Shown in pieces: positions 3,433 to 13,213 of a stretch of DNA of 28,379 nt. Position 1 is the first letter of the stretch; each line of letters starts with the position of its first letter. Source of the stretch: an uncultured Gemmatimonadota bacterium. Its GTDB lineage: Bacteria; Gemmatimonadota; Gemmatimonadetes; Longimicrobiales; Gaopeijiaceae. The position numbers and the translations under genes were made by a program. The stretch is taken from assembly GCA_937136445.1 (NCBI GenBank), contig CAKZOQ010000048.1, forward strand, positions 1 through 28,379, in the 5' to 3' direction. The notes beneath the pieces were generated by a model. It did not search any database. It worked only from the letters and a program-made list of their open reading frames with translations, and was not told the origin of the DNA.

Positions 3433-4344
3433 TTATACGCCCGCTGACGGGAGGCTCGCCAGGAACCCGTCGGTGAGGCGGAGCTCCATCACTTCCTCCA
3501 CCGGACCCCGAAGGGTCACCTCCAGCCGCTGCGAGACGGTGACCGAGAGACGGCCCCCCTCCATGCGGACGGTCAGAGGCCCGGGCTCCTGGAGGCCCCG
3601 ATGCACCGCTGAGACAGCCACGGCGCAGGCGCTGGTTCCCGACGCCGTGGTGGGTCCCACCCCCCGCTCCCAGATGAGGGCCTCGAGCACCCCCGGCTCC
3701 AGGGAGGCGGCGAGCTGGACGTTCGACCCCGCCGCCAGCGCCGGGTGGATGGCCAGCGGCGCCCCCACCTCCTCCAGCCGATCCGCCGTGAGGACCTCGC
3801 CCCAGACCACCAGGTGAGGGTTGCCCACGGAGACCGGCGTGAGGTCCAGCCATCCGGCACCCACCACCTCCAGATGGCCCCCTGCGTCCAGGGCGTCGGG
3901 GTCCAGGGCCACCGCCTCGGGGCCCACCCGGCATCGACCCATCTCCACCGAGACGTCGTACCGTCCGCCCTCCCGCCCGTGCACCGTCATCTCCACCACC
4001 GCCCCGCCGATGCGCACCCGGAAGGCCTCCCCCACCCCGATCCGACCGGTGCGGAGCAGGTGGCTGGCGGCGATGCGGAGCCCGTTCCCGCTCCGCTCGA
4101 ACTCCGTACCGTCGGGGTTGAAGCCCCGGAGCCGGGCCACCACCCCCTCCGGGTCCCCCGCCGACGGCGCCGAGACCACGACCAGCCCGTCGCTTCCGGC
4201 CCCCCGGTGGGGGTGACAGAGCGCGGCTACCGCTCCGGGAATCACCGGCCAGGCGTGCCCCTCGTCCGCCACAAGGTAGTCGTTGCCCAGCCCGTGGGCC
4301 TTGTAGAGGTCGGCGGCGGCGAGGAGGGGCGGGGCGTCGGGCAC
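3433..4344 (-). CDS. dapF: Diaminopimelate epimerase (DapF)-fold protein with Ser in place of both catalytic Cys; about 303 aa, start uncertain
   Basis: KAHGLGNDYLV, FNPDGTEFERSGNGLRI, VSVGNPHLV, SNVQL, WERGVGPTTASGTSACAVA and MEGGRL motifs. GTG at 4344 was chosen as the start nearest the conserved N-terminal motif. Confidence 0.85.
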   Translation of the reverse strand: MPDAPPLLAAADLYKAHGLGNDYLVADEGHAWPVIPGAVAALCHPHRGAGSDGLVVVSAPSAGDPEGVVARLRGFNPDGTEFERSGNGLRIAASHLLRTGRIGVGEAFRVRIGGAVVEMTVHGREGGRYDVSVEMGRCRVGPEAVALDPDALDAGGHLEVVGAGWLDLTPVSVGNPHLVVWGEVLTADRLEEVGAPLAIHPALAAGSNVQLAASLEPGVLEALIWERGVGPTTASGTSACAVAVSAVHRGLQEPGPLTVRMEGGRLSVTVSQRLEVTLRGPVEEVMELRLTDGFLASLPSAGV

Positions 4345-4387
4345 GGATGGCTCCCGGGTGCGGAGGGAGAGGGGTGAGGACCCCGGT

Positions 4388-4393
4388 AAGCTA
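4388..4393 (-). promoter_or_regulatory. Possible -10 element for the dapF-like gene
   Basis: TAGCTT on the minus strand, 43 nt upstream of GTG 4344. It is the same hexamer seen at 780 and 7310, but no convincing -35 was found. Confidence 0.25.
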
Positions 4394-4574
4394 GTCTCCG
4401 CACGTCCGTACATCGACTCGTGGGGAAGGTCGGCTGCCACCGGCTTCAGGGGCCGTTCGCAACCTTTCTCCGCCCGGGCCCGTCCCATGAGCTGGACGAG
4501 CATGCGGTCGGAGTAGCGCCGGCGGTGCGTCGGGGACCAGCAGGCAGGAACGGGGACGGGGGGATGGGACGAAG

Positions 4575-7265
4575 ATGAGGGGTCGAGGGTGGACGATGAC
4601 GGCAGCGCTGCTGGGGAGCCTGGCCACCGCCGGCCTCCTGGGTGCCCAGGAGGTCTCCCACGCAGCCACGGCCGCGAGATCACCGCCGGTGGTCCGGGGG
4701 TGCTGCACCGACGGCGCCACTCGCCCAGCGCTGGAAGCCACCCGCCTCGAGGGCGGGGTGGAGTTGGACGGTCGGATGGACGAGGCGGACTGGCGCCGGG
4801 CGGCCGTCGCCACCGGCTTCACGCAGTTCAGCCCCGACGAGGGTGCCCCAGCCTCGGAGCGCACCGAAGCACGGGTCCTCTACGGCGAGGACGCCCTCTA
4901 CGTCTTCCTTCGGGCCTTCGACTCGCGCCCGGACTCCATCGTCGGCCAGGTGACCCGTCGGGACCAGATGTCGTACTCCGACGCCCTGGGCGTGGTGGTG
5001 GACTCCTACTTCGACCGGCGCACCGCCTTCCACTTCGCGGTGAACCCGGAGGGCGTCCAGTACGACATCTACCGCTACGACGACACGGCCATGGACTTCG
5101 GGTGGGACGCCGTCTGGGAGGTGGCCACGCGCCGCGACCCCGACGGCTGGTCGGCGGAGTTCCGCATCCCCTACTCGCAGCTCCGCTTCGGGGAGGGCGG
5201 GGCCCGGACCTGGGGCATCAACTTCGTCCGGGACATCGCCCGCCGGGACGAGACGGTGATGTGGTCCCCCACCGTCCAGGACGACAACGCCATGGTCTCC
5301 CTCTTCGGCGAACTCCAGGGCCTGGAGGGCGTCGAGGCACCCACCCGCCTCGAGGTCCTCCCCTATTCGGTGGCCCGGGTCGAGCAGGTGCCGGGAAATC
5401 CGGCCAACCCCTTCTGGTCGGAGAGCCGGACCACCGGCGCCATCGGAGCCGACCTGAAGCTGGGCCTCACCGGGAACCTCACCCTGGACCTCACCCTGAA
5501 TCCCGATTTCGGCCAGGTGGAGGCGGACCCCGCCCAGGTGAATCTCAGCGCCTTCGAGACCTTCCTCCCCGAGCGTCGCCCCTTCTTCCAGGAAGGGGCC
5601 TCCATCTTCAACTTCGGGATCGGGCTGGGGGACGGCGACGGGAGTACGGAATCCCTCTTCTACTCCCGGCGCATCGGGCGGCCACCGCAGGGGTCGGTGG
5701 AGGAGGACGGCTGGGTGGACGCCGACGACCGGACCACCATCCTCGGCGCCTGGAAGATCTCCGGGAAGACGTCCGACGGCTGGTCCGTCGGCCTGCTCCA
5801 CGCCATCACCGGCCAGGAGGAGGCGGTGGTGGCGCCGGACGCGGGGGCCGCCAGCGACCGGCTCACCCAGGCGGTGGAGCCGGAGACGCACTACGGCGTG
5901 ATCCGGCTGCAGAAGGACTTCCGGGAGGGTCGCTCCGCCCTGGGCATCATCGGGACCGGCACCCGCAGGGACGGGGAGGTGGCGGACGCGCTGGGGCTGC
6001 ACCGGCATGCCTTCGCCGGAGGCCTGGACGCCCGGCACCGCTTCGGGGACGACAACTATGAGCTCACAGGCTACATCCTCGGCTCCCGGGTGGACGGCTC
6101 CGCCGAGACGCTGCGGGAGACCCAGGAACGACCGGCTCACTACTTCCAGCGTCCCGACGCCGACCACCTGGACTACGATCCCACCCGGACGAGCCTCTCG
6201 GGGACCTCCGGCTTCCTCTCCATCGGCAAGATCGCCGGTGGCCACTGGCGCTTCAGCACTGGCCTCCAGACCCGCTCCGGCGGCTTCGACGTGAACGACC
6301 TGGGATACCAGCGCGACGCCGACTCCTTCGTGAACTGGGCCTGGATCGCCTACCGGCAGAACAGCACCCAGGGCATCTTCCGGAACTACGGCATCAACCT
6401 GAACGGCTGGCAGGCCTACACCACCGCGTGGGACCGGACCGGCCTGGGCGGCAACGTCAACGCCAACGCTCAGTTCACCAACTACTGGCACGCCTACGCC
6501 GGGATCAACCGGGATCTGGCCTCCTACTCCGGCCGAACCCTGCGCGGCGGCCCCCTCTTCCGCACCGAGGCCCAGACCAACGCCTGGGCGGGGTTCGGGA
6601 CGGACAGCCGCAAGGCCCTCCGCTTCAACCTGAACGGGTGGGGGAACGTGCGAGGGGAGAGCGACTCCCGGACGCTGGGGCTGTCGCCTTCGCTCCGCTG
6701 GCGGGCCTCGGGCCGAGCCCAGTTCAACCTGGGGCTGAACCTCCGCCGCACCGTCGAGGACCGGCAGTGGGTGGATCGGGTGGGCGAGGAGGACCCCGCC
6801 TACCTCTTCGGGCGGCTGGACCAGACCACGGTGGGCGTCACCCTCCGGGCGGACTACGCCTTCAGCCCCACTCTGTCGTTCCAGCTCTACGCCCAGCCCT
6901 TCGTGAGCGCCGGGGAGTACGGGGGCTACAAGGTGGTGACGGACCCGGTGGCCGAGGCCTACGCCGATCGCTTCCGACCGGTGGAGACCCGCCGGGACGG
7001 GGACGATCTCGTCGCCGACGTGGACGGGGACGGGGCGCTGGACCGCATCGGCCGACCGGACTTCAACGTGAAGCAGTTCCGTTCCAACGCGGTGCTGCGC
7101 TGGCAGTATCTCCCGGGCTCCACCCTGTACCTCGTGTGGTCCCAGGGCCGGGACCACGACCACGACAAGGGCGCGTTCGACTTCGGCACCGACCTCGACA
7201 CCCTCTTCGGCGTGGAATCCGAGGACGTGTTCATGATCAAGGTGAGCTACTGGTTCGGAGGATGA
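4575..7265 (+). CDS. DUF5916-type outer-membrane protein with an N-terminal CBM9-like (DOMON-like) domain, 896 aa (alternative start 4596)
   Basis: Signal peptide (AALLGSLATAGLLGAQE), LDGRMDEADW...FTQFSPDEGAPASERTEARVLY, WSAEFRIPYSQLRF, LDLTLNPDFGQVEAD, FLPERRPFFQEG and LFYSRRIGR. The C-terminal half has alternating beta-strand character and ends MIKVSYWFGG. Confidence 0.8.
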   Translation: MRGRGWTMTAALLGSLATAGLLGAQEVSHAATAARSPPVVRGCCTDGATRPALEATRLEGGVELDGRMDEADWRRAAVATGFTQFSPDEGAPASERTEARVLYGEDALYVFLRAFDSRPDSIVGQVTRRDQMSYSDALGVVVDSYFDRRTAFHFAVNPEGVQYDIYRYDDTAMDFGWDAVWEVATRRDPDGWSAEFRIPYSQLRFGEGGARTWGINFVRDIARRDETVMWSPTVQDDNAMVSLFGELQGLEGVEAPTRLEVLPYSVARVEQVPGNPANPFWSESRTTGAIGADLKLGLTGNLTLDLTLNPDFGQVEADPAQVNLSAFETFLPERRPFFQEGASIFNFGIGLGDGDGSTESLFYSRRIGRPPQGSVEEDGWVDADDRTTILGAWKISGKTSDGWSVGLLHAITGQEEAVVAPDAGAASDRLTQAVEPETHYGVIRLQKDFREGRSALGIIGTGTRRDGEVADALGLHRHAFAGGLDARHRFGDDNYELTGYILGSRVDGSAETLRETQERPAHYFQRPDADHLDYDPTRTSLSGTSGFLSIGKIAGGHWRFSTGLQTRSGGFDVNDLGYQRDADSFVNWAWIAYRQNSTQGIFRNYGINLNGWQAYTTAWDRTGLGGNVNANAQFTNYWHAYAGINRDLASYSGRTLRGGPLFRTEAQTNAWAGFGTDSRKALRFNLNGWGNVRGESDSRTLGLSPSLRWRASGRAQFNLGLNLRRTVEDRQWVDRVGEEDPAYLFGRLDQTTVGVTLRADYAFSPTLSFQLYAQPFVSAGEYGGYKVVTDPVAEAYADRFRPVETRRDGDDLVADVDGDGALDRIGRPDFNVKQFRSNAVLRWQYLPGSTLYLVWSQGRDHDHDKGAFDFGTDLDTLFGVESEDVFMIKVSYWFGG

Positions 7266-7286
7266 TCCCCGGCCCACCGTCCCCCC

Positions 7287-7315
7287 TTGGAGCGGAACGG
7301 CCTCGGCGATAGCTT
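7287..7315 (+). promoter_or_regulatory. Putative sigma70-type promoter of the met operon
   Basis: TTGGAG (7287-7292), 17-nt spacer, TAGCTT (7310-7315). This would start transcription at about 7322, just ahead of the riboswitch. Confidence 0.5.
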
Positions 7316-7332
7316 TTTCCTCGACCATCGAA

Positions 7333-7414
7333 TCGGGCGATTTGCGGCATATTGCGGCCCGACCGGCGACCGGATCCTTCCGGACCCGCCGGCGAACGAG
7401 CTAAAAAGCCTCGC
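7333..7414 (+). ncRNA. SAM-II-class riboswitch aptamer (long-loop variant with a hairpin inserted in L3)
   Basis: P1 is TCGGGC (7333-38) pairing with GCCCGA (7357-62). The SAM-II core motifs GATTT (7339-43), TTGC (7352-55) and GCTAAAAA (7400-07) are in the canonical order. Pseudoknot pairing GGC (7346-48) with GCC (7408-10). L3 hairpin CCGGCG/CGCCGG (7363-68/7387-92) and CCGGA/TCCGG (7370-74/7379-83). It sits in the 5' UTR of metH. Confidence 0.8.
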
Positions 7415-7460
7415 CTCGCCGCCTGCATCTGCGTCGGGGCGTGTTGCATCGGGAGGTACC

Positions 7461-11212
<3,752 letters not shown>

Positions 11213-11216
<4 letters not shown>

Positions 11217-13075
11217 GTCTCCGGGAGATCCTCGAGGACGGGCGGGTCCACCTGGTGGACGGAGCCATGGGGACCCTCCTCTACAACCGGGGCGTCTTCG
11301 TCAACGTCTGCTACGACGAGCTCAACCTGGACCGCCCGGAGCTGGTCCAGGGGATCCACGAGGAGTACGTGGAGGCCGGGGCCGAGATCCTGGAGACGAA
11401 CACCTTCGGCGCCAACCCCGTGAAGCTCTCGGCCTTCGGATTGGAGGACCGCACCGAGGAGATCAACGAGACCGCCGTGCGCCTCGCCCGTGCCGCGGCC
11501 GGCTCCCGAGCGTACGTCACCGGCGCGGTCGGTCCCCTGGGGATACGGATCGAGCCCTGGGGTCCCACGGCCCTGGAGGAGGCGGTGGAGCTCTTTCAGC
11601 GCCAGATCCGGGGACTCCTGGAGGGCGGCGCGGACGGCTTCGTGCTGGAGACCTTCTCCGACCTCCATGAACTGCAATGCGCAGTGCGCGCGGTGCGGGA
11701 GCTGACCGACCTTCCCGTCATCGCGCAGATGACGGTGGGTCAGGACGGTACCACCTCCTACGGCACGACCGCGGCGGCCATCGCTCCCGAGCTGGCCGAA
11801 CTCGACGTCCAGGTCGTCGGGCTCAACTGCAGCGTGGGCCCGGCCGTGATGCTGGACGCGCTGGAGGAGATGGCCGCCACCACCGACCGGCCCCTGGCGG
11901 CTCAGCCCAACGCCGGTCTTCCGCGCACCGTGGGCGACCGGAAGATCTACCTGGCCAGCCCCGAGTACATGGGTCAGTACGCCCGGCGCATGATCGAGGT
12001 GGGCGCCCGACTCGTCGGGGGATGCTGCGGCACCACGCCAGAGCACATCGCCGCCCTCCGGGACGCCGTCGCTTCGTGGCAGCCGACCCGCAGCTCGGTG
12101 TTCGTGCCGGCGACTCCGCGGGACATGCCCGACGATCATCCCGTTCAGGGGCCGGTCCCCCTCGAGCGCCGGTCCGCCCTGGGCCGGAAGCTCGCCCGGG
12201 GCGAGCCGGTGGCCACGGTGGAGATCTATCCGCCGCACGGCTGGGATCGGGACGCCATCATGGACCCGGCCCGGGAGCTCAAGGTGGCGGGTGTGGATGC
12301 CGTGAACATCTTCGACTCGGCCCGGGGACAGACCCGGATGGGCGTCGTTCCGTCCGCGCTCCTGGTGGAGCGGGAGGTTGGGATCGAGACCGTGGTGCAC
12401 TACACCTGCAGGGACAAGAACATGCCCGGGATGATCTCCGACCTCCTGGGCGCAGCCGGCGTGGGGCTCCGCAACCTCCTCCTGGTGAGCGGCGACCCCC
12501 CGGTCCAGGGGCCCTACCAGGACGCCAAGGCCGTCTTCGACATCGACTCCATCGGGCTCACCAACGTGGTGCAGGGGCTGAATCGTGGCGTGGACCCCGG
12601 AGGCAACTCCATCGGCTCCCCCACCGAATTCGTCGTCGGGGTGGCGGCCAACCACGGCGCGGTGGACCGGGATCGCGAGCGGAAGCGCTTCCGCTACAAG
12701 GTCGAGGCCGGTGCGGACTACGCCGTGACCCAGCCCGTCTTCGATCCCGAGGCGCTCGAGCGGTTCCTGGAGGAGGTCGCCCGGGACGACATCCCCGTCA
12801 TCGCAGGGATCTGGCCCTTCCTCAACCTCCGGAACGCGGAGTTCCTGGCCAACGAGGCCCCCGGGGTCGAGGTCCCCACGGCGGCGGTGGATCGCATGCG
12901 TTCGGCCCAGCAGTCCGGGACGGAAGCCGCGCTGGAGGAGGGCGTCGCCCTGGCCCTGGAGATGATCGAAGCCGTGCGACCATTGGTGGCCGGCTTCCAT
13001 CTGAGTGCCCCCAACGGCCGGGTGGACGTGGCCCTCCGGGTCCTCCGCGAAGGGGGCGTTCGGGCCACGGCCTGA
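11213..13075 (+). CDS. yitJ: Bifunctional homocysteine S-methyltransferase / 5,10-methylenetetrahydrofolate reductase (YitJ-type), 620 aa
   Basis: ATGA overlap with the metH stop. N-terminal domain: [39 protein letters not shown]-terminal MTHFR domain: [38 protein letters not shown]. Confidence 0.93.
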
Positions 13076-13094
13076 GTCGGGGTCGCCCCGGCTC
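13074..13094. terminator. GC-rich hairpin between convergent reading frames; possible bidirectional terminator
   Basis: GAGTCGGGG-TCG-CCCCGGCTC gives a 9-bp stem with one G:U pair, directly at the yitJ stop. There is no U-tract. Confidence 0.4.
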
Positions 13095-13213
13095 TAGGTG
13101 GCCTCGCGAGCCTCGTCCCTGGCCTCTTCGGCGAGGGTGCGGCGGCGGTGGATGAAGCCCAGCAGCACGAGCCCGGTGGCCAGCAGGACGTAGGTGGAGG
13201 GCTCGGGAGGGAT
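13094..13213 (-). pseudogene. Orphan PEP-CTERM sorting-signal remnant
   Basis: IPPEPSTYVLLATGLVLLGFIHRRR followed by 15 aa and TAG gives the PEP motif, TM helix and basic cluster. The in-frame upstream sequence (to ATG 13330) has no signal peptide or recognisable domain and overlaps the opposite-strand promoter at 13294-13323. Confidence 0.6.

Follow-up and report, generated by a model that had tools for sequence, protein, structure and literature searches.

A divergent SAM-II-class element with a hairpin insert precedes metH in Gemmatimonadota

The leader of metH in an uncultured Gemmatimonadota bacterium carries at positions 7333-7410 what is very probably the aptamer of a SAM-II-class riboswitch, an assignment to which its architecture, covariation and graded homology all point. 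The element is a divergent SAM-II branch found in Gemmatimonadota, that is, a known switch class in a less-studied phylum and not a new class, and it leaves knowledge of the SAM-II class itself unchanged. Our explanation of the whole leader, to which we assign a probability of roughly 60%, is that this SAM-II aptamer controls metH, that SAM turns the gene off and that the platform downstream of the aptamer is an attenuator. Within the window (the whole stretch of 28,379 nt that was analysed), the element lies in the intergenic region 7266-7460, with a DUF5916 gene (4575-7265) on one side and the metH ATG at 7461 on the other, and the leader is composed of the following features.

7310-7315, + strand: TAGCTT, a TAnnTT promoter-like box, its position shared with most of the 131 leaders collected
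7333-7338, + strand: P1 5' strand UCGGGC, pairing with 7357-7362; the pair at alignment columns 9/34 covaries
7339-7356, + strand: P1 loop GAUUUGCGGCAUAUUGCG, comprising L1 GAUUU and the pseudoknot 5' strand (G7346 G7347 C7348, U7350, U7352 U7353), its columns invariant or nearly so in alignment A1
7357-7362, + strand: P1 3' strand GCCCGA, pairing with 7333-7338
7363-7392, + strand: two-stem hairpin, an L3 insert immediately after P1, identified by folding
7393-7399, + strand: single-stranded L3 linker CGAACGA, counterpart of the SAM-II consensus AAAcAAgUC; GAAC(G/A)A is kept in the long-L3 forms
7400-7410, + strand: pseudoknot 3' strand GCUAAAAAGCC, with pairs 7404-7353, 7405-7352, 7407-7350, 7408-7348, 7409-7347 and 7410-7346
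7412-7441, + strand: GC-rich terminator-like hairpin, CGCCUCGCCGC (7412-7422) with GCGUCGGGGCG (7431-7441), identified by folding and by the conserved hairpin position
7442-7449, + strand: U/G-rich tail UGUUGCAU, a weak U tract with 4 U in 8
7451-7456, + strand: Shine-Dalgarno sequence (SD) GGGAGG, 4 nt 5' of the ATG at 7461
7461-11216, + strand: metH, cobalamin-dependent methionine synthase, 1251 aa, with S-methyl_trans, Pterin_bind, B12-binding_2, B12-binding and Met_synt_B12 all matched in Pfam

The SAM-II hallmarks that an earlier note had read from this DNA, namely P1, the GAUUU...UUGC loop, the 3' tail and the H-type pseudoknot, were each found where the note had placed them. GAUUU occupies 7339-7343 and UUGC 7352-7355, which fits the Rfam SAM_alpha consensus GAUUUG...UUGC, and the pocket nucleotides conserved in that consensus (GAUUU, UUGC and GCUAAA) are all retained in the window. 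In the mechanism that we propose, the GCUAAAAAGCC tail folds back on the GGC..U.UU part of the P1 loop and on the GAUUU strand to form the SAM pocket, and the riboswitch controls metH in cis. We infer SAM as the ligand of the window element.

Searches with existing models gave a different picture. Rfam 15 at gathering thresholds returned no match in the window, and at E up to 10 the region 7200-7520 gave no SAM family, its sole match being a spurious miRNA with E 3; SAM_V (RF01826) was likewise without a match in this region at E up to 10. The window fails the SAM_alpha gathering cut-off (36 bits), RF00521 and RF01726 run over the whole genome did not find the locus and gave sub-threshold noise elsewhere only, and RF01726 matched neither the window region, nor the whole genome (E up to 10), nor 19 orthologous loci. 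None of the three models that the earlier note had named for checking its proposal (SAM_alpha, SAM-II_long_loops and SAM_V) thus matches the window, and judged by the Rfam models and the fold of the whole leader alone the element would have been dismissed. The models miss it because of the L3 hairpin and the divergent P1 and P2a.

Since Rfam gave no match in the window, homology to SAM-II was shown through relatives. BLAST of the leader against 60 related genomes recovered the 5' core GGGCGAUUUGCGGCAUAUUGCGGCCC from about 20 genera of the window's family, with identities of 90-100%, and scanning 185,579 species genomes with a sequence pattern yielded at least 120 loci, nearly all of them in Gemmatimonadota MAGs among the matches listed, with a few among the same matches from Anaeromyxobacter, other Myxococcota, Bradymonadia and Latescibacterota. 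Altogether 131 unique elements were collected, the window included, in a set that draws on the matches listed. Their L3 length is bimodal, with a short form of 11-16 nt (n=89) and a long form of 27-53 nt (n=42, including the window). Scores on RF00521 were graded across these relatives: short-L3 copies elsewhere in the phylum reached 41-56 bits (cut-off 36), within the family of the window, short-L3 metH leaders, whose P1 is likewise GGGG/CCC, reached 22-34 bits, and the long-L3 copies put through Rfam (the window and 15 orthologs) gave no match. In cmscan alignments, the short-L3 relatives had a core in common with the SAM-II consensus (GAUUUG, UUGC, GCUAAA and GCC) and a P2a strand 3 nt shorter. 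Four near-identical short-L3 cores were also seen outside the phylum (L034, L045, L088 and L096, in Anaeromyxobacter soli, a Bradymonadia MAG, a Latescibacteria MAG and a 'delta proteobacterium' MAG), at 41-53 bits on RF00521.

A covariance model (R1) made with 109 sequences from the short and long L3 forms scored 62 bits on window positions 7327-7413 (E 8e-11), the only copy in the window's 89%-complete genome. Across Gemmatimonadota, 110 of 151 sampled genomes, a tally that takes in one unpublished genome (G116), held 1-5 copies each, so that SAM-II appears as the common SAM sensor of the phylum, with metH, yitJ-like, hom-like and thrC-like genes as its targets. Apart from the tally, no single claim depends on G116, nor does any depend on G037 or G056, two genomes from the BLAST search. 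P1 and the core motifs are therefore conserved in orthologous leaders, in about 20 genera and widely in Gemmatimonadota, as the earlier note had expected of a genuine element. SAM-II is best known from Proteobacteria and Bacteroidota, and the note had placed the element in a phylum for which it knew of no described SAM-II; our literature search found no paper on SAM-II in Gemmatimonadota, which agrees with that view, but short-L3 copies there pass the Rfam cut-off, so that SAM-II is detectable in the phylum with existing models.

Covariation was evaluated in alignment A1, which comprises 109 sequences and in which 12 P1 and pseudoknot pairs were scored. Standard pairs formed in 94.2% of the P1 and pseudoknot cells, a level reached by 0 of 500 shuffles, and pairing fell to 28-60% in slid controls. 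The P1 pair at columns 9/34 alternated between U-A (n=59) and G-C (n=49). Pseudoknot cells were paired in 98.5% of cases, a test that is not circular because the covariance model holds P1 only; the collecting pattern had fixed several pseudoknot columns, and the informative ones are those left free. One pseudoknot pair was C-G in 103 sequences and U-A in 4, with GGC/GCC becoming GGU/ACC in all four, and another was U-A in 81, U-G in 18 and G-C in 4, the G-C form being AGC with CGCC. These results indicated that P1 and the pseudoknot covary across related leaders, in line with the proposal of the earlier note. They also bear on the reading that the resemblance to SAM-II arose by chance in a GC-rich leader, or that the leader structure is independent of any ligand. 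The missing Rfam match in the window and a whole-leader fold no better than shuffles (z -0.16) speak for that reading, but it is refuted by conservation across genera and phylum, by the covarying pseudoknot and by the graded Rfam scores of the relatives, and we give it practically no weight.

The claimed 30-nt two-stem hairpin in L3 is present as a stable fold, at -22.6 kcal/mol (z -3.2) for 7363-7392 folded with the linker. Each of the 42 long L3 inserts likewise folds into a hairpin (mean z -2.8, with 93% below -1); stems and loops are of unrelated sequence, with GAAC(G/A)A left single-stranded in every case. Because every insert forms a hairpin while the sequences are unrelated, the insert is conserved as structure and not as sequence. 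The insert loops showed no motif pointing to a tertiary contact, and the hairpin most likely acts just as a stable carrier of extra nucleotides. As a candidate part of the switch it was set aside: its complementarity to its own downstream 80 nt was weak, at -27.3 kcal/mol versus -26.4 kcal/mol to those of other leaders (p 0.046, with flat ranks). About a third of the Gemmatimonadota SAM-II-like elements collected carry such a hairpin (42 of 131 unique, among the matches listed). With the window and 15 long-L3 orthologs escaping Rfam, automatic annotation probably misses a metH regulator in these genomes, and adding long-L3 sequences to the SAM-II seed would close this gap.

Compared with known families, the element is closest to SAM-II (RF00521; metA element), with which it has in common the P1 loop with GAUUU...UUGC and the H-type pseudoknot made by the GCUAAA(A)..GCC tail. 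It differs from RF00521 in its P2a, which has 3 bp (GGC/GCC) and a 3-nt loop deletion versus the consensus CCGGCC/GGCCGG, in its P1 (GGG(G)C/GCCC versus CGUGG/CCACG), and in its 30-nt L3 hairpin, Gemmatimonadota host and metH target. Structured SAM-II insertions have been described, in an alignment with hairpin inserts directly 3' of P1 (Weinberg et al. 2010, PMC2864571), and the 'SAM-II long insert' family from that work (RF01726) resembles the window element in having a stably folding insert at the same site, immediately 3' of the P1 3' strand. A small number of SAM-II elements were reported in the Bacteroides group when the class was defined (Corbino et al. 2005, PMC1273637). Unlike the window insert, which is GC-rich, the RF01726 family is AU-rich, its members having been found in Bacteroidetes and marine samples; the GC-rich insert occurs in the 42 elements noted above, almost all of them Gemmatimonadota metH leaders among the matches listed. 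SAM-V (RF01826) is likewise an H-type pseudoknot, related to SAM-II and with a similar pocket. The relatives of the window element differ from it in matching RF00521 and not RF01826.

The gene context is consistent with a SAM-II element. As in SAM-II, the element precedes methionine or SAM genes, metH in the window and metH, yitJ-like, hom-like and thrC-like genes in relatives, and in SAM-II an intrinsic terminator often comes next (PMC1273637). Long-L3 copies lie 5' of full-length metH in nearly every case with a callable ORF, and short-L3 copies lie 5' of genes of all four kinds, the thrC-like (threonine-synthase) and hom-like (homoserine-dehydrogenase) calls having been made by eye from N-termini. 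The yitJ-like protein, of ~600 aa, is 35% identical to the MetH N-terminus and combines homocysteine methyltransferase with MTHFR. The earlier proposal that the switch controls metH-yitJ held for metH, a plain five-domain metH by Pfam, but not for yitJ: the gene is absent from the window, and the next ORFs after metH have no Pfam match. Just 3' of metH, the long ORFs at 11677-13155 (+) and 11192-13000 (-) had no Pfam match on either strand.

The SD lies ~40 nt past the aptamer, as had been claimed, and 50 nt separate the aptamer 3' end (7410) from the metH start. The separate expression platform proposed earlier exists in the form of the hairpin pairing 7412-7422 with 7431-7441, which folds alone at -15.7 kcal/mol. 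Neither such a platform nor an L3 insert is new, both having already been described for SAM-II (PMC1273637, PMC2864571). According to Corbino et al. 2005 (PMC1273637), terminators lie between P2 and the ORF in many SAM-II elements, which work as OFF switches, and the SAM-II leaders of metZ and metA in S. meliloti terminate transcription with distant translation starts (Scheuer et al. 2022, PMC9373788). The window resembles the latter two in layout, with a Rho-independent terminator after the aptamer there and a terminator-like hairpin here, and with a start distant from the aptamer (PMC9373788); it is unlike S. meliloti metA in that the metA SD is within the riboswitch, with the translation start 74 nt downstream, whereas the window SD is separate and next to the ATG.

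The hairpin position is widely conserved. A hairpin of 23-35 nt starting 0-6 nt past the aptamer was present in 35 of the 41 long-L3 relatives scored, a count that leaves out the window because its own hairpin was set by hand, and in 44 short-L3 leaders; these hairpins were scored one by one, since RNAalifold gave no structure with the 3' strands misaligned. Tails with 5 or more U among the first 9 nt past the hairpin were found in 19 of the 35 long-L3 and 33 of the 44 short-L3 leaders, and tails in the window's genus are degenerate, for example UGUUGCAU and UGUGUCGUCU. A canonical terminator scan at the locus did not call the hairpin 7412-7441, and over 20 kb it produced 2 terminator-like sites, below the shuffled count, so that the scan says little for this GC-rich genome. 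The hairpin 7412-7441 and its U/G-rich tail constitute the platform, most likely a transcription attenuator, and we regard transcription attenuation as slightly more probable than not.

A rather unlikely alternative is that the output is translational, the hairpin being no terminator and SAM altering access to the SD (7451-7456), for example through pairing of a freed CCUC (7409-7412, 7414-7417) with GGGAGG, or that the riboswitch governs both translation and the stability of the mRNA, the arrangement of S. meliloti metA. Such an output would suit an SD just 9 nt past the hairpin and the degenerate U tract of this genus, and dual control by SAM-II is documented (PMC9373788). In eight leaders (L059, L082, L111, L120, L121, L128, L134 and L136) the aptamer is directly followed by GAGG or AGG and the start codon of the ~600-aa yitJ-like gene, with GAGG right after GCC; this layout is the classical SD-occluding design, and GAGG or GAAG is also kept directly past GCC in some long-L3 leaders. 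The folds of the window leader nevertheless argue against it: the anti-SD alternative put forward in the earlier note, CCUC with GGGAGG, was predicted at a probability of ~0.01, and the SD is as accessible in the free fold as in the bound mimic (P(SD paired) 0.42 in both). Moreover, the anti-SD model as drawn makes SAM an activator, and many orthologous leaders have clear U tracts, some with 60-130 nt from hairpin to start. With SD-occluding yitJ-like leaders and terminator-type leaders elsewhere, Gemmatimonadota uses both translational and transcriptional SAM-II platforms. Among the long-L3 leaders, five (L013, L018, L038, L114 and L129) have a purine run (GAGG, GAAG or GGAG) right past GCC that pairs with the U-rich stretch after the hairpin and is reminiscent of the SD located within the metA riboswitch of S. 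meliloti (PMC9373788); no purine run stands directly past the pseudoknot GCC in the window.

Returning to transcription attenuation, how the aptamer would be coupled to the terminator was clearest in the short-L3 leaders. There, an antiterminator pairs the aptamer 3' strand (N-CGCUAAAA; NCGCUAAAA) with the terminator loop and 3' strand (UUUU-R-GCG-N), as exemplified by loci L119, L053, L041, L085 and L037. The duplex averaged -12.3 kcal/mol versus -9.2 with shuffled terminators, cognate pairs exceeded non-cognate ones (p 0.02), and the variants covary (GUCGC/GCGAC versus ACCGC/GCGGC). A tail-to-terminator antiterminator of this kind was looked for in the long-L3 leaders and was absent (-6.9 versus -7.5 for shuffled).

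These antiterminators bear on the reading in which a SAM-II-like fold binds another ligand, such as SAH, or turns metH on. In other phyla, metH is typically among the genes under SAH-responsive ON switches, P2a has only 3 bp here, and a clear OFF-type antiterminator was not found for the long-L3 form. We nevertheless consider such a switch very improbable: the pocket nucleotides of SAM_alpha are all kept, the core also stands 5' of yitJ-like, hom-like and thrC-like genes, which form a biosynthetic regulon that SAM would be expected to repress, and the short-L3 siblings have an OFF-type antiterminator with covariation. SAM most likely turns metH off.

For the long-L3 form, the folding programs used cover neither pseudoknot nor ligand, and in full-length folds made with them the hairpin 7412-7441 had a probability of 0.79 free and 0.90 in the bound mimic. 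With the terminator at ~0.8-0.9 with or without the aptamer constraint, thermodynamics alone shows no switch. In folds of the nascent transcript up to the terminator loop, pairing between the 5' strands of P1 and the terminator was predicted in 29 of 36 long-L3 leaders (at a probability of 0.76 on average), compared with only 9 of 44 short-L3 leaders. The window itself gave a probability of 0.81, with an MFE of -43.1 versus -40.9 kcal/mol when P1 was forced (a cost of 2.2). These folds suggest a switching step in which, without SAM, the terminator 5' strand would capture the P1 5' strand (GGGCGA, 7335-7340) and no terminator would form, and in which, with SAM, the pseudoknot would lock P1 and the terminator would fold. 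This is the step that we favour, tentatively. The complementarity between the two 5' strands could merely reflect shared GGGGC/GCCCC helices, and a search for covariation between the leader/P1 5' strand and the terminator 5' strand found none, cognate and non-cognate complementarity being equal (p 0.94) and the partners nearly invariant.

It is conceivable, if unlikely, that the coupling of aptamer and terminator has been rewired in the long-L3 branch, with capture of the P1 5' strand replacing the tail antiterminator and the L3 hairpin perhaps serving as a co-transcriptional spacer or timer. If true, this rewiring would place two different switching strands inside one orthologous riboswitch lineage. 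The two platform designs offer a natural comparison of the ways in which a terminator can be linked to an H-type pseudoknot aptamer. A candidate decoy pseudoknot between the loop GCGGC and GCCGC (7418-7422) was noticed by eye in this genus and one neighbour only.

Upstream of the aptamer, the 'good promoter' described earlier did not hold up in a sigma-70 consensus scan of the locus, which gave no match; the TAnnTT box at 7310-7315 is found instead. This box, which we take to resemble the TAnnTTTG -7 promoter element of the Bacteroidota group, peaks at 27-32 nt 5' of GAUUU in most of the 131 leaders (loci L003-L152 and the window). Farther upstream, positions 3433-4683 (-) encode a DAP_epimerase-domain protein with a long N-terminal extension, its Pfam match covering residues 284-390 of 416.
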